From positions 3,200,395 through 3,264,394 of the forward strand of contig OY843748.1 of NCBI GenBank assembly GCA_963693015.1: DNA of 64,000 bases, in the 5' to 3' direction. The notes below the pieces were generated by a model, which saw nothing but the letters and a program-made list of their open reading frames with translations, had not been told where the DNA came from and did not search any database. The DNA is from a bacterium (GTDB taxonomy: Bacteria > JAAXHH01). Below, one piece after another: positions 341-59,737 of this stretch (positions within the stretch are counted from its first letter, which is position 1; each line of letters starts with the position of its first letter). Both the position numbers and the translations under genes were made by a program.

Positions 341-544
341 TCATTCTTCTTGGGTGTCCGATCGCTGCAAATCATCGGCCGTAATCACCCGCCGGGCCGG
401 ATAGCGCACGTACTTCCGTCCCGAATCGGCTTGTTGTTCTCTGACTTGCCTGAAGATCTTCTTGAGGTCGTATCCGCACTGAGCGGCAAGTTCGTCCCGT
501 ATGGCACGAACTTCTGCCACGATAGGATCATCTTTCATCGTCAA
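341..544 (-). CDS. Small hypothetical protein (65-67 aa) downstream of the PIN remnant; possible toxin-antitoxin partner
   Basis: ORF MTMKDDPIVAEVRAIRDELAAQCGYDLKKIFRQVREQQ... with a TTG/ATG start. It overlaps the 3' end of the PIN-like ORF. No family recognised. Confidence 0.35.
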   Translation of the reverse strand: MTMKDDPIVAEVRAIRDELAAQCGYDLKKIFRQVREQQADSGRKYVRYPARRVITADDLQRSDTQEE

Positions 545-881
545 TGTCCTCCATCAGTTCTTCAGGGGTACAGATTACAGGAGATTCGAGACCAGCCTGC
601 CGACAGACGGATTCAATGCTCAACCGTGTCGCCGCGTTGGCGATATGTCGGAAATTCCAGGTGACAAGATACTCGATTCCGTTGACCGCGGCGATGGCGA
701 CGTGCAAGGCGTCTCGCGTCGCGACTTCAGGCAGGGCGCCGGCTTCTAACAGGTTTTCGGCCAATTCCAAGGCCTCCTCGGTAGCGCAAGAGACGCAAGT
801 GAAGCCAGCATGACGGTACGGTCGCCGGCCGCGCTGTCAGATAGCTGATGACCGTAGTCTCGACGTACACACGTGGTTTCA
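528..881 (-). pseudogene. PIN-domain (VapC-like) toxin, frameshifted
   Basis: The N-terminal MKPRVYVETTVISYLTARP (ATG at about 881) is in one frame. The C-terminal half (...DALHVAIAAVNGIEYLVTWNFRHIAN..., ORF 528-770) is in another frame, with a stop at 837-839 between them. Both halves match conserved PIN motifs. Confidence 0.55.
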
Positions 882-1202
882 TCTTGTATCCACCCATTCA
901 CCCCCGAAACACCTTCATCCCCTCGTCTCCCAGGTGATTGATTACCTTCACCGCGGTCCGGCAAGGTAATTGATCATAAACGTACGAACGAACATGATCG
1001 GCAAGACAGCCTGTTTCGCGAGGGCGTTCAAAAAGAAGGCGCACCAACCGGTCCAATCGTTATCTCGAGATACCGCCAGCAGCCTTTCATAGTATTCTTC
1101 CCTGTGAGCCTCGAAATACTCGCTTATTTAGAAATCGGGATGATTGATAATCTTGCGTCTAAAGAGGAGGCAATTACATCGAAAGGCAAACAAGATTGGA
1201 TT

Positions 1203-1745
1203 TTATAAATCAAAGTTGGCTTTCAGGTAGTCGGTGAGGGCGTCTTCCACCCGGTCGCGTATGGCATTGCGCACGAAGCCGGTGGACTTTGTGTTGTCTT
1301 TACCGTACGTCCCAATACTGCCGTATCGGTATGGATTATGGTACATCAAAAACCGTTGCGTCTCGCCCGATCGTTCTATCGAAACGTATTCAGCGAATCC
1401 TACGTTTACACAGTATAGAAACGGTGGTTCTTCATCGCGGTCACAAAGCACTTCGACCCTTAACCAAAAGCCGGATTTCGCCGACCTGGCTAAACCAGCC
1501 ACAAAGGCCGTACTCCGCTTCAGGCGCGCCCGCACAAGCAATCCGTCAATCATCTCGTCGATAGACTTCTTCGTAAAAGGACACTTCCCGTACTGTTTGT
1601 AATCAACATGTAACGTGTTGGGGTTTTCCACCTTCAACGGCGACGGGAGGTTCTCAGTCTGCCCAGATATAGTTTCTGAGTAACCCAAGAACGTGGCTAC
1701 CAGTAGCATCATGGATAGAAGTGATAAACCGCTTTTCTGTTTCAT
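1203..1745 (-). CDS. Secreted hypothetical protein (signal peptide) in a low-GC islet
   Basis: 180-aa ORF with an N-terminal hydrophobic signal (MKQKSGLSLLSMMLLVATFLG). AT-rich relative to its surroundings. Lies 47 nt downstream of the 380-aa gene. Confidence 0.5.
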   Translation of the reverse strand: MKQKSGLSLLSMMLLVATFLGYSETISGQTENLPSPLKVENPNTLHVDYKQYGKCPFTKKSIDEMIDGLLVRARLKRSTAFVAGLARSAKSGFWLRVEVLCDRDEEPPFLYCVNVGFAEYVSIERSGETQRFLMYHNPYRYGSIGTYGKDNTKSTGFVRNAIRDRVEDALTDYLKANFDL

Positions 1746-1792
1746 TCACGTTCTCCTTGTACCTTTAGAACGGTTAATTTTGGATTTTCTAC

Positions 1793-2935
1793 TCATTCCA
1801 GGCCTGTGTGCTTCCGGGCCAGATAGCTGGCAAAGGATGCGCAGGCGCCCAGCATGAACACCGCTTCGTCCATACCCACATCGGCGTCGTCTAGGTCCAG
1901 TCGCGCGTGACGAATGCCCTGTTCGTCCGAAGTGTATCCATACAGGTTGCTGAACGCTTTCTTAAGCGCCGGGTGGAGTCTGCCATGCTTCTCAATCGAC
2001 GCGAGGGCTGGTTCTAGTGTTTTCTTGGCGTGTTTTTGGGTGCCATCGGGGTCGAACTGTCGCGCCACGGACTCCACAGCGTGTATGCTTTCCCGGACGC
2101 TATCGGCCCAGTCACCTCGGTTGATGCACTCGGAGGCTGCTCGGAGGTGGGTCGTGCCGGCGTCCAAACCGTTCTGGCGTAGCGTCTGTAACGAACAGAC
2201 GATGGCGTTTCCTTCTTCTTCAGTCACGGCCGGTATGATGGTTGGCGGAGTTTCCATATCTATAGTATAAGCCAATCTACAATCAGCAAACACCTGCTTC
2301 ATCGAGGCAATGACCTCACTCGGGCACTTTGGGTGTCGTAGGATGTATTGAACCATATCAAAGACTTTGTGGAACGGAAGCGTTTCTAAGGAACGTTTTA
2401 GTTCACCGGTAACATGGTTAAATCCACTATTCAACTCATCTAGGGGCTCTTCTCCACGACGGGTATATCTCAGTTGTTGTATGCGGTTATGTATCTGGTT
2501 CTTCCACTTATCCAAAGGACGATTATCGTGATAGATATGCTTGTCTTTTAAAGCTACTTCCCAGTCTCCACCGATTATGTATCCTAAAGTATCACCCAGA
2601 TTAACAACAGGCACTCTGGACTGCTCGATTGAAGCGTAGAGAACATTGTATATCCTCGTCCTCGCATTTTCAGGCAACTCTTTCAGCTTCAGCACCCCGG
2701 GTATGTCTTCGTAACCTCGGGCCTGCGAAAAACTCAAGCTTCTCGGATCACGAACTGCCTCTGCCGTTCCGTTCTCACCAGGTTTCTCACCTGCATGTTC
2801 CTTCGCCGTCGTGGACATGGCAACTTCTACGGCCCGCTGACGTGCGCGCTTAGCAGCTCTGTGCATGGCGGCCTCAGCACCGATGAAATCCGGGTCGCGC
2901 GATGTTTTATCTGGCTTCAGGCTCTCTGAACTCAT
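1793..2935 (-). CDS. Hypothetical 380-aa protein translationally coupled to a zeta-like kinase (disordered N-terminus, helical C-terminal domain; possible Abi/HEPN-like effector or antitoxin)
   Basis: Long ORF whose ATG overlaps the stop of the upstream kinase gene (ATGA, 2932-2935). Lower GC. No canonical Rx4-6H motif was found. Confidence 0.55.
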   Translation of the reverse strand: MSSESLKPDKTSRDPDFIGAEAAMHRAAKRARQRAVEVAMSTTAKEHAGEKPGENGTAEAVRDPRSLSFSQARGYEDIPGVLKLKELPENARTRIYNVLYASIEQSRVPVVNLGDTLGYIIGGDWEVALKDKHIYHDNRPLDKWKNQIHNRIQQLRYTRRGEEPLDELNSGFNHVTGELKRSLETLPFHKVFDMVQYILRHPKCPSEVIASMKQVFADCRLAYTIDMETPPTIIPAVTEEEGNAIVCSLQTLRQNGLDAGTTHLRAASECINRGDWADSVRESIHAVESVARQFDPDGTQKHAKKTLEPALASIEKHGRLHPALKKAFSNLYGYTSDEQGIRHARLDLDDADVGMDEAVFMLGACASFASYLARKHTGLE

Positions 2936-3462
2936 CTCTGACTCATCTCCTCCAGCAGTTTCGGCTCATCACCTGAATTGTCGTATAAAGCCCATTCATC
3001 GACGAGGTCGCGATAAACCTGCACGAAGTTGTTCCATCCGGCATCGAAACGTCTGCGAATCACCGACTCGGGCACGTCGTGCCCTCCTTCGGATACACGC
3101 TGTGCAACGCGGGCGACTGCTGCTTCAGGGTTCGGCAAACGGAGGAAGAACAGCTTGATACGATAACCTTGATCCTGCCAGCGTTTAATCCAACGGGCAT
3201 AGCCGCGTCCACTCAACGTCGTCTCGAAGGCGAAACTGTGGCCTTTATGTACATGGTCGTGAATCTGTCTCAACATCATCCGGCCAGCCTGTACAGTGAT
3301 CGTGTTCGGGCGAAACGGATTCAGTCCTGCCGCGATGAGATCAGCGTTGACGAAGATGGGACAATTCGCCTCGTTGGGCAGAAATTCGGTAGCGAACGTC
3401 GTCTTGCCCGCACCGTTCGGACCGGCAATCACGAATATCTTCTTTTCGGTCGAGTTCGACAA
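2932..3462 (-). CDS. Zeta-toxin-family P-loop kinase (short, 176 aa)
   Basis: Walker A motif IAGPNGAGKTT. C-terminal ...GGHDVPESVIRRRF motif, which I recall as characteristic of zeta/PezT-type kinases. Confidence 0.7.
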   Translation of the reverse strand: MSNSTEKKIFVIAGPNGAGKTTFATEFLPNEANCPIFVNADLIAAGLNPFRPNTITVQAGRMMLRQIHDHVHKGHSFAFETTLSGRGYARWIKRWQDQGYRIKLFFLRLPNPEAAVARVAQRVSEGGHDVPESVIRRRFDAGWNNFVQVYRDLVDEWALYDNSGDEPKLLEEMSQR

Positions 3463-3798
3463 ACGCTGGCCAAATCCTGTCAGGTCTCTACTTACTACCT
3501 CGAGGTTACTGATCCTATAGGCTTGTCGTTAGTTCCTCATGTCGTTCGCCCTGCTGCAGTTCTGAGCGTCCGGTACGAAACCCACGGTTAATTTAAGTTT
3601 TTCACCTGGTTTGTCAATTCTGTCAACCGGTCTCCTTGCAGCGGACCGACCCGCTTTCTGACCTTGGTAAATGCGGATCGCCCCGCTTCCTGATACTGGA
3701 TCTTGCTGAACGAAAGCTGTTCCGCACTATCGTATCATACTCGTCTGTATCGTCGGCTCTAAATGTGATGTTCTTCACGATCAAATCCTCTTCATGAC

Positions 3799-3849: not shown

Positions 3850-4089
3850 ATGAAATCCAAGATCGCTATCACATTGGACGAGGAAATCGTCGAGCAACTC
3901 GACTATCTGGTTATGCAGCAGTCATACAAAAACAGAAGCCAGGCGATTGAAGAAGCCGTGTTAGAAAAGCTCCATCGACTCAAGCGGAGCCGTCTGGCAC
4001 GGGAATGCGCTAAACTGGAACCTGTTGTGGAGCAGGAGTTGGCTGAAGAAGGACTCCGGGAGGACATGGATATTTGGCCCGAATATTGA
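3850..4089 (+). CDS. mazE: MazE/CopG-like ribbon-helix-helix antitoxin
   Basis: 79-aa product MKSKIAITLDEEIVEQLDYL... with an RHH-type N-terminus. Overlaps the mazF start. Confidence 0.75.
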   Translation: MKSKIAITLDEEIVEQLDYLVMQQSYKNRSQAIEEAVLEKLHRLKRSRLARECAKLEPVVEQELAEEGLREDMDIWPEY

Positions 4090-4412
4090 GGGGAGAAATC
4101 CGCTGGGCCGACCTGAGTCCCACCCGAGGCCAGGAACAGGCTGGTCGACGCCCCGTACTTATCCTGAGCCATGAAGTCTTCAACCAGCGTTCCGGTACGG
4201 TAATCGCCATGGCGATCACAGGGCAGCCTCAACGAGCGGGTTTCCCGTTGACGCTCCCTCTGGATTCGAAAGATCTGCCCAGGCAATCCTGGGTCAAGAT
4301 CGGACAGATTCGAACCCTTTCGGTAGACCGAATCGGTCAAGTCCTGGGTCATTCAACCCCGGAAGAAATGGAACGGACCATCGAAGGGTTGTACGAAATC
4401 ATTGGACCTTGA
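4074..4412 (+). CDS. mazF: MazF/PemK family endoribonuclease toxin
   Basis: LRGEIRWADLSPTRGQEQAGRRPVLILS matches the MazF/PemK N-terminal signature (RGDIYxxDLxPxxGxEQxxxRPxLVxS). Confidence 0.85.
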   Translation: MARILRGEIRWADLSPTRGQEQAGRRPVLILSHEVFNQRSGTVIAMAITGQPQRAGFPLTLPLDSKDLPRQSWVKIGQIRTLSVDRIGQVLGHSTPEEMERTIEGLYEIIGP

Positions 4413-50670: not shown

Positions 50671-51897
50671 ATGCCGAATCTGAAAATCCCATTTATCGAC
50701 GCTTTCCTGAGGTTGCAATCCTCCAGCGGCATCCTGCTGATGCTGGCCACCGCACTGGCGATGGTATTCGCGAACTCCTTTCTCGAACCACTCTACCACT
50801 ACTTGCTGGAAATCCCCATCCAGATCCACATCGCCGCGCTGGACATCAACAAACCGCTGCTGCTCTGGATCAACGACGGCCTGATGACCATCTTCTTCTT
50901 CCTCGTGGGCCTTGAGTTGAAGCGCGAGTTCCTCGAGGGAGAGCTTTCCAACCGCCGGAACATCATCCTGCCCGGTGTCGGCGCCATCGGCGGCATGGTG
51001 ATCCCCGCGCTGATCTATCTGGTCTTAAACAGCGACGACCCCTCCACCTGGCGGGGCTGGGCCGTTCCGGTCGCAACGGACATCGCCTTCACCCTGGGCG
51101 TGCTGACCCTCCTCGGTACGCGCGTGCCCATCTCGATCAAGGTCTTTCTGACCTCGCTGGCCATCCTGGACGACATCGGGGCGATCGTGATCATCGCGGT
51201 GTTCTACACGGCGGAAATATCGGTGACGGCCCTGCTGGTGGCCGCGGGCTGCGTGCTTGTGCTGGTCTTTCTCAACAACCGGAACTGGGTCTCCCACAGT
51301 TCCTACATGATGGTCGGCGTAGTCCTGTGGATCGCCCTGTTGAAATCCGGAGTGCACGCGACGCTGGCCGGCGTGATCCTGGCCGCATTCATCCCCATGC
51401 GGTCCAGGACCGATCCCGACGTCTCGCCGCTCAAGGTCCTGGAGCACGATCTGCATACCGTCGTGGCCTTCGTCATCCTCCCGGTGTTCGCTTTCGCCAA
51501 CGCCGGGATCAATTTCGAGGGCATTACGGCCGAACAGGTATTTCACGGTGTCCCGGTCGGGGTGGCGCTGGGGTTGTTTCTGGGTAAGCAGATCGGCATT
51601 TTCGGCCTCTGCTGGCTCTCTATCAGATTCAAGCTGGCCAGCCTGCCCACCGGCATGTCCTGGTCTGGTCTCTACGGCGCCAGCGCCTTGTGCGGCATCG
51701 GGTTTACCATGAGCCTCTTCATCGGTTCGCTCGCTTTTGGCGACACCGATATGCACGGGATGTTCGACGAACGGCTGGGCATCATCGTGGGATCGCTGCT
51801 GTCGGGCGTGCTGGGCTACGTCGTCCTGCGATACAGCCTGCCGCCTGCGGAGGAAAAGGTCGAGCCTGTCGAGGCCGAAGTGGAGCGGGTGGTTTGA
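50671..51897 (+). CDS. nhaA: Na+/H+ antiporter NhaA
   Basis: NhaA-type sequence throughout (WINDGLMTIFFFLVGLELKRE, DIGAIVII). Confidence 0.92.
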   Translation: MPNLKIPFIDAFLRLQSSSGILLMLATALAMVFANSFLEPLYHYLLEIPIQIHIAALDINKPLLLWINDGLMTIFFFLVGLELKREFLEGELSNRRNIILPGVGAIGGMVIPALIYLVLNSDDPSTWRGWAVPVATDIAFTLGVLTLLGTRVPISIKVFLTSLAILDDIGAIVIIAVFYTAEISVTALLVAAGCVLVLVFLNNRNWVSHSSYMMVGVVLWIALLKSGVHATLAGVILAAFIPMRSRTDPDVSPLKVLEHDLHTVVAFVILPVFAFANAGINFEGITAEQVFHGVPVGVALGLFLGKQIGIFGLCWLSIRFKLASLPTGMSWSGLYGASALCGIGFTMSLFIGSLAFGDTDMHGMFDERLGIIVGSLLSGVLGYVVLRYSLPPAEEKVEPVEAEVERVV

Positions 51898-52025
51898 GGT
51901 GCTAGATAGATCCAGAGGTTACATACTGTTTCAAGTATAGTGCACAACATAGAGAAGCCGGCGGCGTCTACATGTTTTGACTTCAAAGTTGATATCCGTC
52001 GCACAACAGATCGATATCGTGTGAA

Positions 52026-54233
52026 ATGATAGAAAAACAATTCGATGTGCCCTTTATTGCGAACTTGGCACTAAGAGAAAAACAGATTCAGCAGAACTAC
52101 CGCCCCGTCATCGCCGTCCACAAGTGGTTTGCTCGCCGTCCTGGTACGCTCTTCCGAGGACTTTTGCTATCCGAATTCGTAGACAAGCCTCTAAAAGAAG
52201 CTTTTTACAAAGCAAACGATCTTGCAGGTCGTAATGTCGCCGATCCATTCATGGGTGGCGGTACGCCTATCCTGGAAGCCAATCGTATCGGTTGCAATGT
52301 CACAGGATTCGACATTAACCCAATGTCGTACTGGATCGTTAAGCAGGAAATCGAACCTCTGGATCTTTCGTCCTATGCAGAAGCAACGGAGTCCCTTCGT
52401 GCCAAATTGGAAAAAGAAATCGGACCGCTATACAGAACGCGATGTACTCTTTGTGGGTCAGATTCTGCCCATTTAAAATATGCTCTCTGGGTGAAAGTTA
52501 TACCCTGTAACAAGTGTGGAGAAGATGTGGAATTGTATCCCGGTTACCTGCTTTCCACAAACTCCAGGCATCCCCAAAACGTCTTTATATGTTCCTCTTG
52601 CGGGGAACTTACTGAGACCAGCGATCGAAGAGCACCCGGTCGCTGTAGCAGTTGTGCTGAGCAACTGACATCGATTGGTCGCGCAAAACGTAACCGATGT
52701 AGATGTTCGTCCTGTGGTTTCGAAAATCGTTATCCCGACAGTCGTCACGGTCCACCAAAACACAATCTTTTTGCTATTGAGTATCATTGTCCAAGGTGCA
52801 AACCATCCCACGTTGGCAGGTTCTTCAAGAAACCTGACAATGAAGATTTAGAACGGATTAAGACAGCTCAAGCACGTTGGTCAAATACACAGTCCAGATT
52901 TGTTCCTGACGATAAGATTCCAAGTGGAGACGAGTCGAGTCGCCTACACCGATGGGGTTACACTCATTATCGTGATATGTTTAATAGCCGACAACTACTG
53001 GGCTTGGAGTTATCCGCCACCATAATCTCAAATACGCCCGACGAACGAATACGCGACGCACTGGCAACAAATCTATCCGACTTGCTCAGATACCAGAATA
53101 TGTTGTGCCGTTACGATACGATGGCGTTGAAATCATTGGACATTTTCTCCGTACACGGTTTTCCAGTTGGTCTTATTCAATGCGAATCGAATTTTCTGGG
53201 GATCATGCCCCCGGGACGTAATACCTGTTTGGGCAGTGGAGGTTGGGCCAACATCATCGAGAAGTTCAAGAAAGCGAAATCTTACTGCGACCATCCATTT
53301 GAAGTCAGATACGAGGGCCGATCAAAGAAGATCGTTCCGGTAAACGGCGAATGGATCGGAGGTCGTTCCGATGTAGGCGACGACCAATCCTCACGTAGAA
53401 TCGATATTTCGTGCAAAGATGCGTCATCGTCCAAACTGCCCAACGCTTCATTGGATGCGGTAGTCACCGATCCTCCCTATTTTGACAATGTCCAGTACGC
53501 CGAACTTATGGATTTTTGTTATGTCTGGTTAAGGAAACTAGTGGGAGAAACCTCAAAAGCATTCAACGCCGCTTCGACACGCTCACCAGATGAGTTGACC
53601 GGCAATGTAGACATGGGACGTGGGATCGACCATTTCACTGAAGGGCTGTCTGCCGTTTTCCAGCATATGGGGAAGGCACTGAAACCCGAGTCTCCCATGG
53701 CGTTTACTTACCACCATAATGAGATCGAAGCATACTATCCCGTAGCCGTGGCTATCCTTGATGCCGGACTGACCTGTTCGGCTTCACTTCCTTGTCCGGC
53801 CGAAATGGGTGCTTCCATACATATTAACGCCACCGGCTCCTCAGTTGTCGATACGATATTTGTGTGCCGAAAAAAGGGGTCCATGCAACGGAGGTGGCTG
53901 GCGGACTCGCCTGATGAATTAGCACGCATTGTGAAGGAAGACTTGAACCAACTAACCCTTGGAAACTTCAATCCGACAAATGGCGATATAAAATGTATCG
54001 CGTACGGGCACTTGATCCGATTGGCTATCTGGAATCTGCGCAACGAGTGGAACAAACACGATTCAACGGTAAAGCGGATTGCAAAAGTAGCGGATTGGTT
54101 TCATAGTTTTGGTGGCGGGGCGGTTATTGAAAAATGCATAGAAAACATAGGAACCACTGAAGAACTTACTTTGTTTTCAGTGCATGAAACCACAACGGAG
54201 TATGGAAGCGAGATGGTCGATGTACCCTTTTGA
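52026..54233 (+). CDS. DUF1156-type DNA methyltransferase (N6A/N4C class with DPPY motif and Cys-rich Zn-ribbon insertions)
   Basis: N-terminal ADPFMGGGTPILEA (an FxGxG-like SAM motif), multiple CxxC pairs, then VVTDPPYFDNVQYAELMDF (motif IV). Low GC (roughly 40-45%). Confidence 0.75.
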   Translation: MIEKQFDVPFIANLALREKQIQQNYRPVIAVHKWFARRPGTLFRGLLLSEFVDKPLKEAFYKANDLAGRNVADPFMGGGTPILEANRIGCNVTGFDINPMSYWIVKQEIEPLDLSSYAEATESLRAKLEKEIGPLYRTRCTLCGSDSAHLKYALWVKVIPCNKCGEDVELYPGYLLSTNSRHPQNVFICSSCGELTETSDRRAPGRCSSCAEQLTSIGRAKRNRCRCSSCGFENRYPDSRHGPPKHNLFAIEYHCPRCKPSHVGRFFKKPDNEDLERIKTAQARWSNTQSRFVPDDKIPSGDESSRLHRWGYTHYRDMFNSRQLLGLELSATIISNTPDERIRDALATNLSDLLRYQNMLCRYDTMALKSLDIFSVHGFPVGLIQCESNFLGIMPPGRNTCLGSGGWANIIEKFKKAKSYCDHPFEVRYEGRSKKIVPVNGEWIGGRSDVGDDQSSRRIDISCKDASSSKLPNASLDAVVTDPPYFDNVQYAELMDFCYVWLRKLVGETSKAFNAASTRSPDELTGNVDMGRGIDHFTEGLSAVFQHMGKALKPESPMAFTYHHNEIEAYYPVAVAILDAGLTCSASLPCPAEMGASIHINATGSSVVDTIFVCRKKGSMQRRWLADSPDELARIVKEDLNQLTLGNFNPTNGDIKCIAYGHLIRLAIWNLRNEWNKHDSTVKRIAKVADWFHSFGGGAVIEKCIENIGTTEELTLFSVHETTTEYGSEMVDVPF

Positions 54234-55245
54234 AGTCGAATACGATGAAATCCACGAGAATCCCGATCGCTATGTAGATGCTGTATTCTCCTGCCTGGGA
54301 TCGGAATTCCTCGTGTTACCCAAAGGCGATGGTTTCGTCGAGTATCCTGTGTTCGAGCGCGGATACGAAGCGTTGAAAATCGCCACAGATGGCTTTACAG
54401 AAATCGAGCCAGACAGGATACTTCCCGTCATCATTTCTAAACCAATTGCAATTGTAGTTCTGAGGGCTATGCTTGGTTTCACACCCCCTGAATGGGGCTA
54501 TGTGACGACGCAAAGCACCGGAATCGATGTATCGCAACAGTTTATCCGATCGCTTGACAGAAAAGTCCGGCTGAATCCGGAATCCGAACTCAACCCGAAT
54601 GGTGTTACAGTAGATCGACTCAATGCCATGGTTCAAACAGCATGTCAATTACTGAAGTCAAAGACTCCCAATACACGAGAAGACCAATTGCATAGATTGG
54701 ATAAGGCTGATACGAGGCAAGGGGGCGAGGGCATTCAGCACCTATCCATGATGGGTGTCCCCTATGCCATGCTTCTATATGAACGATTTCTTGGAAGGCC
54801 CTTTGCTGGACACCGAGATTCCGTAAGTGAACTCATTGGCGATAGTCTTGAGTCGGCCATTGAGGATGTTCTTGTACAGGCTGGGATCAGCTACCGTAAA
54901 ACAGGACGCGCAGAGAAAATCGAGGGATTTGATCAGGCTCCTGACTTTATTATCCCGAGCGAATACAATCCTGTGGTCATCATCGAGGCGAAGATAACCG
55001 AGGACGACGGAACAGCCCGAGACAAGGTAACACGGATTCAACATCTTGGTGAACTGAGCGTCGCTGGTATTTCGACACGTGAACCGAGATTTCAGGTGAT
55101 AGCCTGTATTGGCGGTCGTGGTTTCGGAGTACGCCGTGAGGATATGAAGAAGTTGATAACCGCGACGAGGGGAAAGGTGTTTACAGCCAATACATTGAAC
55201 CAACTTGTCGATTGTACCCTACTTCGAGAATTCAGGAGTCGATAG
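54184..55245 (+). CDS. PD-(D/E)xK nuclease-like protein (candidate restriction endonuclease partner of the DUF1156 methyltransferase)
   Basis: ...QAPDFIIPSEYNPVVIIEAKITEDDG... fits the PD...(D/E)xK core. Three alternative ATG starts (54184, 54202, 54220) all overlap the methyltransferase stop at 54231-54233. Low GC. Confidence 0.55.
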   Translation: MKPQRSMEARWSMYPFEVEYDEIHENPDRYVDAVFSCLGSEFLVLPKGDGFVEYPVFERGYEALKIATDGFTEIEPDRILPVIISKPIAIVVLRAMLGFTPPEWGYVTTQSTGIDVSQQFIRSLDRKVRLNPESELNPNGVTVDRLNAMVQTACQLLKSKTPNTREDQLHRLDKADTRQGGEGIQHLSMMGVPYAMLLYERFLGRPFAGHRDSVSELIGDSLESAIEDVLVQAGISYRKTGRAEKIEGFDQAPDFIIPSEYNPVVIIEAKITEDDGTARDKVTRIQHLGELSVAGISTREPRFQVIACIGGRGFGVRREDMKKLITATRGKVFTANTLNQLVDCTLLREFRSR

Positions 55246-55276
55246 TTACACCGATATAGCCACCTATTACCGTAGA

Positions 55277-56266
55277 GATTCCTCAATGACTCAGCCTCGC
55301 AAACATCACTATCTGCCTCGATTCTATCTTGGAGGATTCTCAGCCAACAGTCGATCATTAAGCCAGATCGAAAAGTCAACCGGTCGAAGTTTTGTTTGTT
55401 CACTAAGAGATGTTGCAAGCATTAAAGATTATCACCGTCTCGACAAAGGCAGCACGGAAGATTCATTTGAACTAGAAAAGCACCTTGGCTCAATAGAAGG
55501 CAGGCTAGCTCGTGCCCTACGCGAAGTTTTCCAGCACGGATTAACCAATACAACTTTAACTGTTCGGTTGGTAGAACTGGTTTCATTGTTACGATTGCGT
55601 GTGCCGGCAGTTAAAACACAGATCGAAAACACCATTCGCCAAATCGCTAGAAGTTCCTCACTGCTCTTACATAGTACACGGCAGATAAAATCTACAAGCC
55701 CCGAGTGGCTGGAATCTTTACGGAAAGATGAAATCCCCATTAAGGTCTCCAACTCGTTTTGTCTAAGAATAATGTTTTCTCTGGCATACGATGTTGAAAT
55801 CCTTGAACTACTATACTCCATGAGACCGATTATAATCAAAACTCCAGACAACAGCAGCTTCATAACATGCGATCAACCAGTAGCAATCTATAACCCATCA
55901 GCAACATTTAGCCAAGCTGCTGGCGTGGCAATCGAAGATAGCGATACTGAAATAACACTTCCTTTGTCAAGCAATACGCTTTTGAAACTTGATTGGACAG
56001 AAGGAGATCCTATTCAAACAATCGCATCACCTGAAGAAGTTGACGAATACAATCGTAGATCTGTAATCATGGCTTCGTCATACGTTTTTTCGCCGACACC
56101 ATTTTCAACGAAAGCCGGTCAAATAGTTCACAACTACCGTCAGTACTCGGCCGGTATACAACCATCGCAATCAGTTGATTTTGGCCAATCGGTACTCTTT
56201 CGCCAGTTTTTTAGACCAGTACTGCAACAAACTCAATATAAGTCTTTTGAACATTCAGACGCTTAA
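55277..56266 (+). CDS. DUF4238 domain protein
   Basis: N-terminal HHYLPRFYLGGFS matches the DUF4238 hallmark as I recall it. Start MTQPRK at 55277; the track ORF is open from 55205. Confidence 0.7.
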   Translation, partial: DSSMTQPRKHHYLPRFYLGGFSANSRSLSQIEKSTGRSFVCSLRDVASIKDYHRLDKGSTEDSFELEKHLGSIEGRLARALREVFQHGLTNTTLTVRLVELVSLLRLRVPAVKTQIENTIRQIARSSSLLLHSTRQIKSTSPEWLESLRKDEIPIKVSNSFCLRIMFSLAYDVEILELLYSMRPIIIKTPDNSSFITCDQPVAIYNPSATFSQAAGVAIEDSDTEITLPLSSNTLLKLDWTEGDPIQTIASPEEVDEYNRRSVIMASSYVFSPTPFSTKAGQIVHNYRQYSAGIQPSQSVDFGQSVLFRQFFRPVLQQTQYKSFEHSDA

Positions 56267-56474
56267 ATAATGATGCGTCTACCACTAATGCTGGAGGCTG
56301 TTTGGGCACAGAGTTGATATTAACACACTATAGTTGATTTCGAGATTGTAGGAGATATCTCGAATGTAAAACAATTGCCGAGGGCCGGGGATTAGAGAAC
56401 TCGCACGACTCAGCAGGATGCATGGCTGCACGACTGGCGCAAGTTAAAGGGAGAAGGGGCCATTCGACTCCGAA

Positions 56475-56804
56475 ATGGCATTCTGCGTAGAGTGGAATTG
56501 CACTGGTACGAAGGTCATGGCATCGGTAAGTTGGAGATCAAACGCAAACGCTACCTGGACCCAGACCATGAATAACGGAAGCAACAGAAAGCCGGATTCT
56601 TACGTTGTCTGCATTGACAACGCGGACTACACGGCATCGTTGGAGAAACACAAAATCTACCGGGTTGTCCGCGACGATGCGGCAAGGGATGATGGAGATA
56701 TCCGGGTTGTTGACGAGAGTGGAGAGCACTACCTCTATCCCACGGCGAGGTTTGTCCCCATATCAGTACCGGCCGAGGTGGAGAAGTCGCTCGCTCATGA
56801 CTGA
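56475..56804 (+). CDS. Small hypothetical protein (alternative start at 56568)
   Basis: ORF with lower GC at the island edge. No family recognised. Confidence 0.35.
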   Translation: MAFCVEWNCTGTKVMASVSWRSNANATWTQTMNNGSNRKPDSYVVCIDNADYTASLEKHKIYRVVRDDAARDDGDIRVVDESGEHYLYPTARFVPISVPAEVEKSLAHD

Positions 56805-56884
56805 TGCCCGGGGATTGACCGATCACGTATGAGAAGCCGCGCGGTCACCATACCATCTTTCATTACCGAAAACAACCGAAGGAC

Positions 56885-58039
56885 CTACGCCGCATCCAGC
56901 GCCTGACCCAGGTCGGCGATGATGTCGCCGGGATCTTCGAGTCCCACCGAAACACGCGCCCCAAAGCCCTTGTCCGCATCCTCGCCCGAGGGCAGGATCA
57001 GCGTCTCCACGTCGCCCAGGCTGTACCAAGGCTTACACATCTTTAGATTTCCAATAAAACGGTCGAGCGAAACGCCGGGACGGGCGTAAAAGCGCATCAT
57101 TCCGCCATAGCCTCGAAGGTATCCGCTCGCGACCTCGTGTTGGGGATGGGATTGCAATCCGAGATAGTGCACGCGGCCAACTTTTTCGTGTTGTTCCAGG
57201 TATTCGGCCACCTGCTGAGCGCTGGCGCAGTGCCGTTCCATCCGGAATGCCAGGGTCTTGAGGCCCCTGTGCACGAGGAAGGCGTTCATGGGCGCCAGGA
57301 CGCCGCCCATGAGAATCCGCATGTGGTGGATCTGTTTCCGAATCTCTTCGTCGCGGCCGCAGACGATACCGGCCAGCGCGTCGCCGTGTCCGGCCATGTA
57401 CTTGGTCATGGCGTGCAGAACGATGTCGGCGCCGTAGTGAAGGGGCCGAAGCAGGTAGGGAGACAGAAAGGTGTTGTCGACCACGACCAGGGCGCCGGCT
57501 TCATGGGCCATCTCGGTAGCGCGGGCCAGGTCGATGAACTCCATGGAATGGGCGTATGGTTCGAAATAGACCATCCGGGTGGGTTTCTCCAGCGCTTTCT
57601 CCAGGGCGTCCAGGTCGCACAGGTTGACCAGTTCGACGTCCACGCCCCATTTCACCGGCAGCACGTCCTGGAACAGCATGTGGGTACCGGCGTAAACGGT
57701 CTCGTGGCAGACCACCCGGTCGCCGCTCCGAAGCAACCCGAACAACGTCTGGCTGACCGCCGACATGCCGCACGAGGTCGCCTGCGCCCACTCCGCACCT
57801 TCCAGGATCCTCACCTGTTCTTCGAGCGCTCCGCTGGTGGGGCCGCCCGCCCTGTCCAGGCCCCGGCCGTAGGAGTTCGTCCCTTCGTATCCCTCACGGT
57901 AGTTGGTATTCCCCTGGTAGATCGGCACCGCGGATGAGGTGCCGTGGTACCCACCGTGGATCGCGTCGGTGGTAAAGTCCCTGTTTTCGGCCGACTGGTA
58001 GTCATCGGCTGCGAAACGGAGGTCGTGGTCGTTGGACAT
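56885..58039 (-). CDS. PLP-dependent Cys/Met-metabolism enzyme (cystathionine gamma-synthase/beta-lyase / methionine gamma-lyase family)
   Basis: Conserved PLP-lysine region (HAMTKYMAGHGD) and family-wide similarity. Confidence 0.88.
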   Translation of the reverse strand: MSNDHDLRFAADDYQSAENRDFTTDAIHGGYHGTSSAVPIYQGNTNYREGYEGTNSYGRGLDRAGGPTSGALEEQVRILEGAEWAQATSCGMSAVSQTLFGLLRSGDRVVCHETVYAGTHMLFQDVLPVKWGVDVELVNLCDLDALEKALEKPTRMVYFEPYAHSMEFIDLARATEMAHEAGALVVVDNTFLSPYLLRPLHYGADIVLHAMTKYMAGHGDALAGIVCGRDEEIRKQIHHMRILMGGVLAPMNAFLVHRGLKTLAFRMERHCASAQQVAEYLEQHEKVGRVHYLGLQSHPQHEVASGYLRGYGGMMRFYARPGVSLDRFIGNLKMCKPWYSLGDVETLILPSGEDADKGFGARVSVGLEDPGDIIADLGQALDAA

Positions 58040-58301
58040 GGGATGGTATCCTCAGATATACAATACGGAATTATGGTGCTGGGGTCTGGGTCGATGCTGA
58101 ACCAATGGCAAACAGAACGAGAAAGGTCCTGGATTCTTGACTGGTTTAAGGTAAATGGGGATTAAACGGGGTCAAGTCGTATCAGCCTGATTTCACAGGA
58201 TCTCGACCCCCTAGTTCCTCACGTCACTATACAGGTCCACAGGCTGCCGTTCAGCATTAACGCTTGACGTTAATAACACGTAACGTTATTATAGGATTGG
58301 C

Positions 58302-58391
58302 GTGATCATTTCGTTCAAAGACTGGTCAACGACCAATGGCGCTTATGCTTTGTGTGGAAAAATGGCTGTGCCTTCGAAGTCGAACTTGTAG
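58302..58391 (+). pseudogene. Possible HigB/RelE-family toxin remnant (30 codons)
   Basis: GTG-initiated VIISFKDWSTTNGAY... resembles a HigB N-terminus (MIKSFKHK...) but stops after 30 codons. It lies immediately upstream of higA with an AAGGAGG RBS in the gap. Confidence 0.25.
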
Positions 58392-58412
58392 ACTATCATT
58401 AAGGAGGTAAAA

Positions 58413-58718
58413 ATGCCTTATGCCGTAGTCCCCCCGATTCATCCCGGTGAGATCCTCAAGGAAGAGTTTCTCGAACCACTGGGTCTGAGCCAGTATCGTG
58501 TTGCGGTGGATATTTCAGTTCCCCCGCGCCGTATAAACGAAATTGTACACGGCAAACGCTCCATTTCGACCGACACGGCTTTACGGCTGGCCCGTTATTT
58601 TGGAACCACGGATCGTTTCTGGCTGAATCTGCAGACACATTATGACCTGGAGTTGCAGAGGGACAGATTAGGGAAACGTCTGGAGACAGAGGTGCGTATT
58701 CTGGATCGATCGAACTGA
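58413..58718 (+). CDS. higA: HigA-family antitoxin (XRE-type HTH)
   Basis: IHPGEILKEEFLEPLGLSQYRVAVDISVPPRRINEIVHGKRSISTDTALRLARYFGTT is the canonical HigA sequence. Confidence 0.88.
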   Translation: MPYAVVPPIHPGEILKEEFLEPLGLSQYRVAVDISVPPRRINEIVHGKRSISTDTALRLARYFGTTDRFWLNLQTHYDLELQRDRLGKRLETEVRILDRSN

Positions 58719-58732
58719 AACCGGGAATATCC

Positions 58733-59737
58733 ATGTCCCAGCATCCCGCATACCTTCCCAGTCTGGCGTCCGAAGCCGGGATAGGTCTCAATTCCATCCG
58801 ATGCGTAGAATCGCTCAATACCGGCGTAACCAACCGGACATCCCTCGTCGTTCTGCGGGACGATACACGCTTCATCCTTCGCGAGTACGAGTGGCCTTAC
58901 GCTTCAGGCGACAACCTTCGCAGGCTCGAAAAAGAGCTCTATCTGCACGATCTGCTTCTTAAATACGGCGTACCGGTGCCTGCCATCGTCGCGAAGCACG
59001 AGGACGGAAGTACGGGTGCCGTGCTGATGGAGTATAAACCGGGGCAACTCCTTGGAACCGTCGTAGATACCCTGCCTGAAACCCCACGCGCCGAGGCCTG
59101 GCGGGCTGTCGGTGCAGCTTTACGAAAGGTGCATTCCATCCAGCTGCCAGATGGCTGTTCGGGCGTGATCGTCGGAGAAGGCGTACAACCCTTTGAAGAA
59201 GGATCCTGGGGCGACTTTCATTACCACCAGGCTATACAGCATGCGGAAAACCTGCTGAAAAGGGATATGGGATTCAGTTTCGACCTGGCGTCGATGAAGC
59301 GCGTGTTGAAGCAGGCGATACCTGTTCTGAATGAAAGGCCCCTGGTCCTGTTGCACAACGATCCCCACCCCTGGAACGTGCTTGTTCGCGAGGTGGCCGG
59401 CCAATGGACTTGTTCGGCGTGGCTCGACTGGGAATATGCGTGGGCTGGCGATCCGACCTGGGACCTCGCCAGGCTGGATCTTTTCCGGTTGAAGCCGATC
59501 GGCCCCACGCCGGCAGCTTTCTTTGAAGGATACGGCAAAGCTCCGAAAGATCCTGAACGGACGATCTACGAACTGTCCATTTACCTTTGGATGGCAAACC
59601 AGTACCTGGATGGAGAGGTGGACGAGGAGCGCGTGCTGATGCCTACCTACGAGGCGGCGATGCAGTACCTGGGCCGGATCGACGAAGCGGTGGAGCGGAT
59701 CGATAGAGCGCTTCAAAGGGCCGAGCGACTGTCTTGA
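58733..59737 (+). CDS. Phosphotransferase (APH / aminoglycoside phosphotransferase-like kinase) family protein
   Basis: Brenner-type catalytic loop LLHNDPHPWNVLV and a downstream D-W-E motif (LDWEYA). Confidence 0.8.
   Translation: MSQHPAYLPSLASEAGIGLNSIRCVESLNTGVTNRTSLVVLRDDTRFILREYEWPYASGDNLRRLEKELYLHDLLLKYGVPVPAIVAKHEDGSTGAVLMEYKPGQLLGTVVDTLPETPRAEAWRAVGAALRKVHSIQLPDGCSGVIVGEGVQPFEEGSWGDFHYHQAIQHAENLLKRDMGFSFDLASMKRVLKQAIPVLNERPLVLLHNDPHPWNVLVREVAGQWTCSAWLDWEYAWAGDPTWDLARLDLFRLKPIGPTPAAFFEGYGKAPKDPERTIYELSIYLWMANQYLDGEVDEERVLMPTYEAAMQYLGRIDEAVERIDRALQRAERLS

Follow-up and report, generated by a model that had tools for sequence, protein, structure and literature searches.

We analysed a 64,000-nucleotide (nt) stretch of contig OY843748.1 (GenBank assembly GCA_963693015.1, positions 3,200,395 to 3,264,394 of the forward strand), hereafter the window, to which coordinates refer unless another locus is named, and found in it two overlapping genes, A and B, that most likely make up a self-contained restriction-modification cassette of ~3.3 kb in the orthodox Type II style. 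We base this prediction on the methyltransferase motifs I and IV in A, on the nuclease fold predicted for the separate protein B, and on the linkage of the two genes without an ATPase, a helicase or a specificity subunit. A preliminary description of this DNA had listed three open reading frames (ORFs), at 52026-54233 (735 amino acids, aa), 54184-55245 (353 aa) and 55205-56266 (353 aa, from TTG), the last of which is called gene C below, and had suspected an atypical restriction-modification or antiphage module. All three ORFs lie where it placed them; the word atypical is too strong, the layout being the plain one of an orthodox Type II system. The two genes and their junction are as follows:

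52026..54233, plus strand: gene A, predicted 735-aa S-adenosylmethionine (SAM)-dependent DNA methyltransferase, from its motifs and sub-threshold profile matches.
54220..55245, plus strand: gene B, restriction-endonuclease-like protein of ~341 aa, or of 347 aa with a start at 54202 (longest ORF 353 aa, from 54184).
54184..54233, plus strand: overlapping junction of A and B, where the final codons of A contain three ATGs in the frame of B (54184, 54202 and 54220).

The predicted product of gene A carries motif I as DPFMGGG (residues 73-79) and then motif IV as TDPPY (residues 481-485), and between residues 140 and 258 it has six CxxC pairs that would form three Cys4 zinc ribbons (C140/143/161/164, C189/192/207/210 and C227/230/255/258). 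Both motifs and all 12 cysteines are invariant in two alignments of 17 and 27 homologues; the C-terminal tail of the protein is invariant too (G727 and F735). The preliminary description had seen this motif order and these ribbons correctly but had called the enzyme gamma-type; since motifs I and IV are separated by a nested target-recognition insert of ~400 residues, the layout is alpha-class-like, with a nested target-recognition domain, and not gamma. Its assignment of A to the DUF1156 methylases holds as kinship, given the DUF1156-like helical segment at the N-terminus and the nested Cys4 insert, but not as membership: A scores 21.7 bits against Pfam DUF1156 (PF06634; cut-off 24) and 104 bits against NCBIfam DUF1156_antiphage (NF042963; cut-off 1000). 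Pfam N6_N4_Mtase gives 24 bits (cut-off 26.7), and UPF0020 and MethyltransfD12 also match below their cut-offs, while the top PADLOC models, HmaB (2.9e-28), PglXI (1.6e-24) and DUF1156_MTase (2.7e-24), are profiles of 919-973 positions that are covered in part. With profiles matched in part and scores under the cut-offs, we read A from its sequence as a shorter, distant relative of the DUF1156/HmaB/BrxXI methylases. Sequence matches of A in the PDB are short and confined to motif I of small methylases. Thousands of homologues share the length of 735 aa and carry the names 'DNA methylase' or 'DUF1156 domain-containing protein' at NCBI. Because of the DPPY motif and the relatives of A, the predicted product is most likely an N6-adenine methyltransferase, N4-cytosine being a possible alternative target.

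The product of gene B contains the catalytic-type motif APD254F...VIIE268AK270, a contiguous PD-x13-ExK. The PD...(V/I)IEAK core picked out in the preliminary description proved invariant in homologues down to 27% identity, an alignment in which D254, E268, K270 and D274 do not vary, E223 is nearly invariant, and a DDGTARDK helix is conserved in the C-terminal domain. The AlphaFold model built from that alignment has a predicted local distance difference test score (pLDDT) of 91.4. Its N-terminal half (residues ~14-205) is all-helical with helix-turn-helix (HTH)-like features, and its core follows the order alpha-beta-beta-beta-alpha-beta, with a helix at 208-232 that carries E223, strands at 255-257 and 265-271, a helix at 275-293 and a strand at 304-310; D254 stands at the start of the second strand, and the third carries E268 and K270. 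In a structure search, the solved folds nearest to the model were all Type II restriction endonucleases, the structural alignment with the stand-alone enzyme BstEII spanning 223 residues. The N-terminal domain has HTH-like matches to POU domains, controller-protein folds and a sigma region-4-like segment. The nuclease proposed for this ORF is thus borne out by the predicted fold and the invariant D254/E268/K270, and according to the model B is a member of the PD-(D/E)xK superfamily with a restriction-endonuclease fold. Profile searches were less telling: the only Pfam matches, EcoRII-C (PF09019, E=0.032) and TPD (PF14811, E=0.037), are below the gathering cut-off; NCBIfam and PADLOC yielded nothing usable; a PDB search with the B-family profile gave chance-level matches, the best being a sigma-factor HTH segment (E=0.088); and a fold search of the viral BFVD collection returned weak generic PD-(D/E)xK matches only, including a mimivirus CDIN1 model (E=0.21). 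The B family is large, with more than 5,900 clusters at 90% identity in a word-indexed search and 903 representatives at E<=0.001 in a library at 50% identity, and its members are named 'hypothetical protein' or, rarely, 'C15orf41 family protein' at NCBI.

We compared 80 loci, the best of 115 from a scan of a genome collection with B; all are 66-76% identical to B and, having been picked by this similarity, they represent a close clade. Their sources are Desulfobacterota, Ignavibacteria, Planctomycetota, Thermotogae, Anaerolineae, Fibrobacter, Latescibacterota, Gemmatimonadota, Nitrospirota, Nitrospinota, Spirochaetes, Firmicutes, Aminicenantia, Fermentibacteria and one Micrarchaeota bin, more than 12 phyla overall. 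In all 77 loci with room for it, the gene immediately upstream of B is a full-length A (60-74% identical), and the two genes overlap in every case: 63 have a B ATG 20 nt before the A stop, preceded by GGAG within the conserved EYG codons of A, and the remaining loci show overlaps of 14-47 nt. The compact methyltransferase-nuclease pair suspected earlier is therefore a real unit, although it is no rarity, since thousands of copies are already in public data. The overlap of B with the A stop was also seen correctly in the window, but the start of B is most likely ATG 54220 or 54202, giving overlaps of 14 or 32 nt, rather than 54184. Pairwise identities of A and B across 73 loci are correlated (r=0.845, Mantel p<=0.001). 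In these 73 loci, two copies of B and a single copy of A are cut short by a premature stop, so that both genes are intact in ~97% or more, and the ratios of nonsynonymous to synonymous substitution rates (dN/dS) against L081, a TARA scaffold, are 0.083 for A and 0.116 for B, comparable to those of housekeeping neighbours. Both genes are under purifying selection.

The pair travels without further partners. Clustering of the flanking ORFs of the 80 loci revealed no third recurrent gene, the next commonest being a sensor kinase in 9 loci, and no DUF499-like or helicase cluster recurs there; the eight largest flanking proteins have zero matches to PADLOC defence models, and the flanks consist mostly of housekeeping genes, not defence islands, with mobility genes absent. 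These flanks decide on a reading that the preliminary description had itself raised, in which the locus is a decayed remnant of a DUF1156/DUF499/helicase system (Hma, BREX-related) or of a type-3 bacteriophage exclusion (BREX) system whose ATPase and helicase were lost. As that description stated, DUF1156 methylases normally accompany a DUF499 ATPase and a helicase in the tripartite core of Hma and BREX-related systems (PMC12839542). The models nearest to A in PADLOC and NCBIfam (HmaB, PglXI and DUF1156_antiphage) and a C-terminus ~200 residues shorter than those profiles would suit a remnant. However, a decaying gene pair would hardly be so regularly intact, strongly conserved and under purifying selection, with A constant in length in thousands of homologues, and we regard the remnant reading, very improbable on these grounds, as refuted for this clade, where A and B are always paired in the loci with room, no DUF499-like or helicase cluster recurs in the flanks of the 80 loci and the eight largest neighbouring proteins give no PADLOC match.

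In a rival reading the two proteins work as one complex, in which the zinc-ribbon insert of A would give specificity to both activities and B would be a recruited nuclease module. Such a complex would follow a logic like that of Type I/III or IIB systems but lack the ATPase, or it would descend from, or be a minimal forerunner of, BREX-related systems. We consider this reading improbable. In its favour, the closest profiles of A (HmaB, PglXI and the DUF1156 methylases) operate within multi-protein systems, A and B co-vary, their overlap is universal, the tail of A is invariant, and B is more conserved than A (see below). Plain co-inheritance, on the other hand, would also yield the co-variation, and B has its own helical domain of ~200 residues with HTH-like matches and aligns over 223 residues with a stand-alone enzyme. 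Furthermore, distant relatives of B pair with unrelated small methyltransferases, once in convergent orientation. On the Microbacterium plasmid NZ_CP120713 (L082, record positions 686-3469), a B-like gene with 28% identity begins on the final base of a gene for a 308-aa beta-class N6_N4 methylase; in L083 a relative with 29% identity lies tail-to-tail with a 441-aa methylase. In L087 and L088 a relative with 44% identity comes after a methylase of 741 aa that is A-like. Restriction-enzyme families usually show such swapping of methylase partners, and the pairing of B relatives with unrelated methyltransferases, one of them convergent, argues that B itself recognises DNA. The plasmid pair sits two genes from an annotated Shedu immune nuclease and so belongs to a small plasmid defence cluster. 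In L089 (1363-6071), a relative with 38% identity is divergent to a gene for a 1170-aa protein with a weak Mrr-like nuclease domain and a ResIII/helicase core, and there is no methylase; this locus may represent a different, methylase-free use of the B nuclease family.

Several points weigh against the reading of A and B as an orthodox-style Type II cassette. The profiles nearest to A are those of methylases from systems that depend on an ATPase and a helicase (HmaB, PglXI), and classic Type II methylase models score lower; the AlphaFold model of A is poor, with a pLDDT of 49.5 and moderate confidence in the zinc-ribbon insert alone. B rises above the threshold in no curated restriction-enzyme family of Pfam or PADLOC, and a PDB sequence search with B found no solved structure. 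Moreover, conservation is higher in B than in A (median pairwise identity 0.76 versus 0.68), and the entire cassette is 60-97% identical across phyla. Such conservation is unusual for restriction enzymes, which as a rule diverge fast. One could propose, though we find it doubtful, that the pair is an uncharacterised pan-phylum restriction-modification lineage joining a BREX-3/Hma-type methylase to a simple nuclease, a minimal ancestor or stripped-down offshoot of the larger systems, with the zinc-ribbon insert perhaps guiding both proteins in a complex; an insert-guided complex would account for the higher conservation of B and for a specificity that seems unchanged over more than 12 phyla.

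In the window, the cassette lies in a sharply delimited island of low guanine-plus-cytosine (GC) content. The GC content is 0.41-0.49 at 52000-56500 versus 0.58-0.69 on either side (500-nt windows), and over 51898-56840 it is 0.471, compared with 0.623 in the remainder of the stretch. At third codon positions (GC3), A and B have a GC content of 0.47 and C has one of 0.36, whereas the genes for MatE, GFO, NhaA and the Cys/Met pyridoxal phosphate (PLP) enzyme reach 0.78-0.90, a large and real break in composition. With NhaA as the query, a metagenome scan retrieved a relative, L091 (MKWU01000794.1), whose flanking proteins are 86-89% identical to those of the window and whose gene order, nhaA, ORF D and the Cys/Met enzyme, represents an empty site; in the window, the neighbours of A are nhaA, B, the DUF4238 gene C, ORF D and the Cys/Met PLP enzyme gene. 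Alignment with L091 by blastn places the left breakpoint at 51899|51900, 2 nt past the nhaA stop codon (TGA, 51895-51897), and the right one at 56447|56448, which correspond to 10252|10256 in L091. The elements concerned are:

51900..56447, plus strand: inserted low-GC island of 4548 bp relative to the empty site of L091, containing A, B and C.
51900..52025, plus strand: leader upstream of A, inside the insert, which aligns with the corresponding stretch of L081.
~56517..56804, plus strand: ORF D, ~95 aa, a backbone gene in the right flank outside the island, with an 80% identical copy at the empty site of L091.

The low-GC island reported after nhaA (0.47 versus 0.62) and its horizontal acquisition are thus upheld by the composition and by the empty site, whereas its right end lies at 56447 and not near 56850, ORF D being part of the backbone. 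ORF D has no Pfam match. In L067 (1124-1620), immediately upstream of A and B, we observed an 83-aa relative of ORF D (46% identical) preceded by an abutting 81-aa ORF, which may be a small toxin-antitoxin-like pair or a coincidental adjacency. The leader probably carries the cassette's own predicted promoter and ribosome-binding site. Conservation upstream of A across the phyla extends over ~45 nt only, and within subclades only; a sigma-70 scan found sites no commoner than chance, and promoter and terminator scans of the island gave counts at or below the shuffled expectation. A repeat search of the island ends revealed no convincing terminal direct or inverted repeats; the two junctions resemble each other weakly and over no more than 8-9 nt (GGTTTGAGG / AGTTAAAGG), a likeness that we do not claim as a target-site duplication. 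No integrase was found at the island, and the window has no tRNA gene.

Across the loci, the GC content of the cassette is 0.43-0.58 while the host flanks span 0.38-0.72, and this independence of host GC, together with the empty site in a close relative, indicates a foreign origin. The sequences therefore support A and B as a horizontally acquired unit that has spread across many phyla. Many cassette-bearing contigs are merely 3-5 kb long; none of 27 tested contigs under 8 kb has the terminal overlap expected of a circle, and the assemblies possibly break at the edges of sequence shared by co-existing genomes. One of these short contigs, the 4.7-kb CAZLMI010000089.1 (L028), is binned as Candidatus Micrarchaeota and carries a cassette 68-71% identical to bacterial copies, which is either a cross-domain transfer or a binning artefact. 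Inference of the recognition site by palindrome avoidance in 0.73 Mb of carrier flanks singled out no site and found only universal CTAG depletion and a generic mild depletion. Within the A-B cassettes themselves (78 loci), 6-base palindromes are depleted, with observed/expected ratios of 0.17-0.45 for GGGCCC, CAGCTG, CTCGAG, GGATCC and others, a statistic from related and hence not independent copies; this depletion would fit an element passing through many restricting hosts.

The remainder of the island, downstream of B, is a slot of variable content that in the window holds gene C:

55286..56266, plus strand: gene C, 326-aa DUF4238 protein (Pfam PF14022, E=3.2e-30, 105.9 bits against a cut-off of 27).
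55242..56447, plus strand: variable cargo slot downstream of B, whose content differs between sister genomes.

The third ORF had been recognised as DUF4238 from its first residues, and the Pfam match confirms this identification. The longest ORF, from TTG 55205 (353 aa), covers profile positions 1-277 of 281 with its residues 33-296, but the exact 326-aa product on record starts at ATG 55286, 41 nt past the B stop, so that C does not overlap B. The PADLOC model DUF4238-Pers (1.6e-14) covers only the N-terminal 120 residues. From MatE as far as the final codons of B, the L081 scaffold is collinear with the window and 85% identical in nucleotides; in protein, A is 88%, B 84% and the neighbours 88-93% identical, and the left junction of the insert is identical in both; the homology stops at 55241 and resumes near 56840. 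Between these points L081 (9029-10947) replaces the DUF4238 gene and ORF D with two minus-strand ORFs of 248 aa and 317 aa, the latter membrane-spanning in appearance when read by eye, and in L171 (6424-8121) the equivalent of the slot holds a 565-aa ORF, with two extra small ORFs upstream of A. None of the slot ORFs of L081 and L171 matches Pfam or PADLOC; from their position beside the cassette, they are candidate new defence genes. The shared left junction, the collinearity with L081 and the low dN/dS suggest that A and B entered the lineage once and were kept under selection while the adjoining slot turned over.

The preliminary description could not tell whether gene C belongs to the same unit. 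A single three-gene defence system of A, B and DUF4238 would be consistent with their adjacency on the same strand of the same low-GC island, and the longest ORF of C would even overlap the end of B. We nevertheless reject it as extremely unlikely, as no DUF4238 gene occurs in any of the 80 loci and the sister genomes hold other genes in the slot; the lower GC3 of C and its start beyond the B stop are also against it, and a DUF4238 protein acts alone in E. coli. As the preliminary description also stated, this protein, from a P2 hotspot, is a single-gene system protecting E. coli against T7 (PMC9122126). We read C as an independent neighbour outside the A-B unit and as a candidate for a single-gene defence against phages.

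A role outside defence can likewise be considered, in which A would be an epigenetic methylase and B a nuclease for repair or recombination, like CDIN1/C15orf41, or the pair a purely selfish addiction module. The name 'C15orf41 family protein' of some B homologues, the weak TPD matches found in 13 of 26 B-family members over the nuclease core (211-258), and the mostly housekeeping flanks devoid of mobility genes are in line with this, yet every TPD match is below the 27-bit cut-off (best E=2.9e-4) and the nearest solved folds are restriction enzymes, not resolvases. The independent pairing of B relatives with different methyltransferases is a signature of restriction-modification, the cassette here adjoins a turnover slot holding a known defence gene, and selfish addiction is compatible with a Type II system rather than an alternative to it. 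We thus hold a non-defence role to be very unlikely, and even jointly the remnant, three-gene and non-defence readings carry little probability.

Returning to the Type II cassette, we infer its enzymatic activities, base specificity, recognition site, translational coupling and defence phenotype along the following lines. A would methylate a fixed DNA sequence, most likely at adenine N6, marking host DNA as self; to read this sequence it would use the nested zinc-ribbon insert that separates its SAM-binding motif from the catalytic one. B would be a metal-dependent PD-(D/E)xK endonuclease with E223, D254, E268 and K270 as catalytic residues, which may bind DNA via its own N-terminal helical HTH-like domain and cut the sequence read by A wherever the methyl mark is missing, for instance on phage or plasmid DNA entering the cell. 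Since the start codon and the GGAG ribosome-binding site of B lie inside the last codons of A, translation of B is probably coupled to that of A, so that the nuclease would appear later than the methylase and in a proportionate amount. The pair spreads horizontally as a unit, and in this genome it has landed 2 nt past the nhaA stop.

This kind of system is well known. Three features are less ordinary: the methylase belongs to a lineage whose other members are seen only beside ATPases and helicases, the endonuclease family is uncurated, and conservation across phyla is high, with the nuclease ahead of the methylase. As the B family has no Pfam or PADLOC model, pipelines for defence annotation would see an orphan 'DUF1156/HmaB-like' methylase and overlook that these loci hold a whole restriction-modification system. 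Bacteria of anoxic sediments and marine habitats commonly carry the cassette, and its sequence looks frozen, so that one experiment in a cultured carrier, such as Desulfocicer vacuolatum DSM 3385 (NZ_FWXY01000021.1, L030) or Desulfacinum hydrothermale DSM 13146 (NZ_FWXF01000030.1, L034), would reveal the recognition site and the role of thousands of genes and might yield a new restriction specificity. The existence of the nested-insert zinc-finger methylase lineage of type-3 BREX and Hma in a plain two-gene form bears on the origin of the larger systems, and the slot beside the cassette offers a small natural screen for new defence genes.

Elsewhere in the window, a second low-GC patch (500-3500, GC 0.50-0.52) contains a 176-aa P-loop ORF (GPNGAGKTT, zeta-toxin/AAA-like by eye), a 380-aa ORF and a 180-aa ORF of secreted appearance, and near it, at 4074-4412, lies a 112-aa ORF that looks MazF/PemK-like by eye. 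A further patch at 58000-58750 (GC 0.48) includes a 101-aa HTH_3 ORF (XRE/HigA-like, 58413-58718) that is 88-89% conserved in L081 and L091.

Among known systems, A most resembles the methylases of the DUF1156/HmaB/BrxXI lineage. BrxXI and the BREX-related or Hma DUF1156 methylases have motif I before motif IV and a large nested recognition insert with a Cys4 zinc finger (PMC12839542), and A shares with them the N-terminal DUF1156-like segment, this motif order and the nested Cys4 insert. However, one Cys4 finger is described for HmaB/BrxXI whereas A would have three zinc ribbons, and their C-terminal region, described as three HTH-like domains, is by profile coverage largely missing in A, whose residues 465-647 align to positions 559-755 of 967 in HmaB and which is ~200 residues shorter. 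In contrast to the DUF1156/Hma systems, A is found in no locus with a DUF499 ATPase, a helicase, PglZ or BrxC and always with a PD-(D/E)xK gene in the loci with room; likewise, the set that defines type-3 BREX (BrxA, BrxB, BrxC, PglZ and BrxHII) does not surround A, and no partner recurs in the 80 loci.

Gene C resembles Rst_DUF4238 (Rousset et al. 2022, P2 hotspot) in standing alone in a variable, hotspot-like slot, but differs in its host, an uncultured marine bacterium rather than an E. coli prophage host, and in that the PADLOC DUF4238-Pers model reaches only its N-terminal 120 residues. CDIN1/C15orf41 (TPD), a predicted PD-(D/E)xK nuclease of eukaryotes, shows a weak, sub-threshold profile likeness to B over the nuclease core 211-258, though in the context of a Codanin-1 partner instead of a methylase, and no nuclease activity is published for it (PMC13370696); if the link were real, a human disease protein would have restriction-enzyme relatives. 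Finally, the orthodox Type II systems share with B the PD-(D/E)xK fold, of the EcoRII/NgoMIV/Cfr10I/PspGI/BsoBI/BstEII-like kind. From these systems the cassette differs in that B has no sequence-level membership in the curated restriction-enzyme families, carries the nearly invariant acidic residue E223 on the preceding helix and adds a large HTH-like N-terminal domain; in that the 735-aa A with its nested zinc-ribbon insert is more than twice as long as the 308-aa beta-class methylase beside a distant B relative; and in the unusual conservation of both proteins across phyla.

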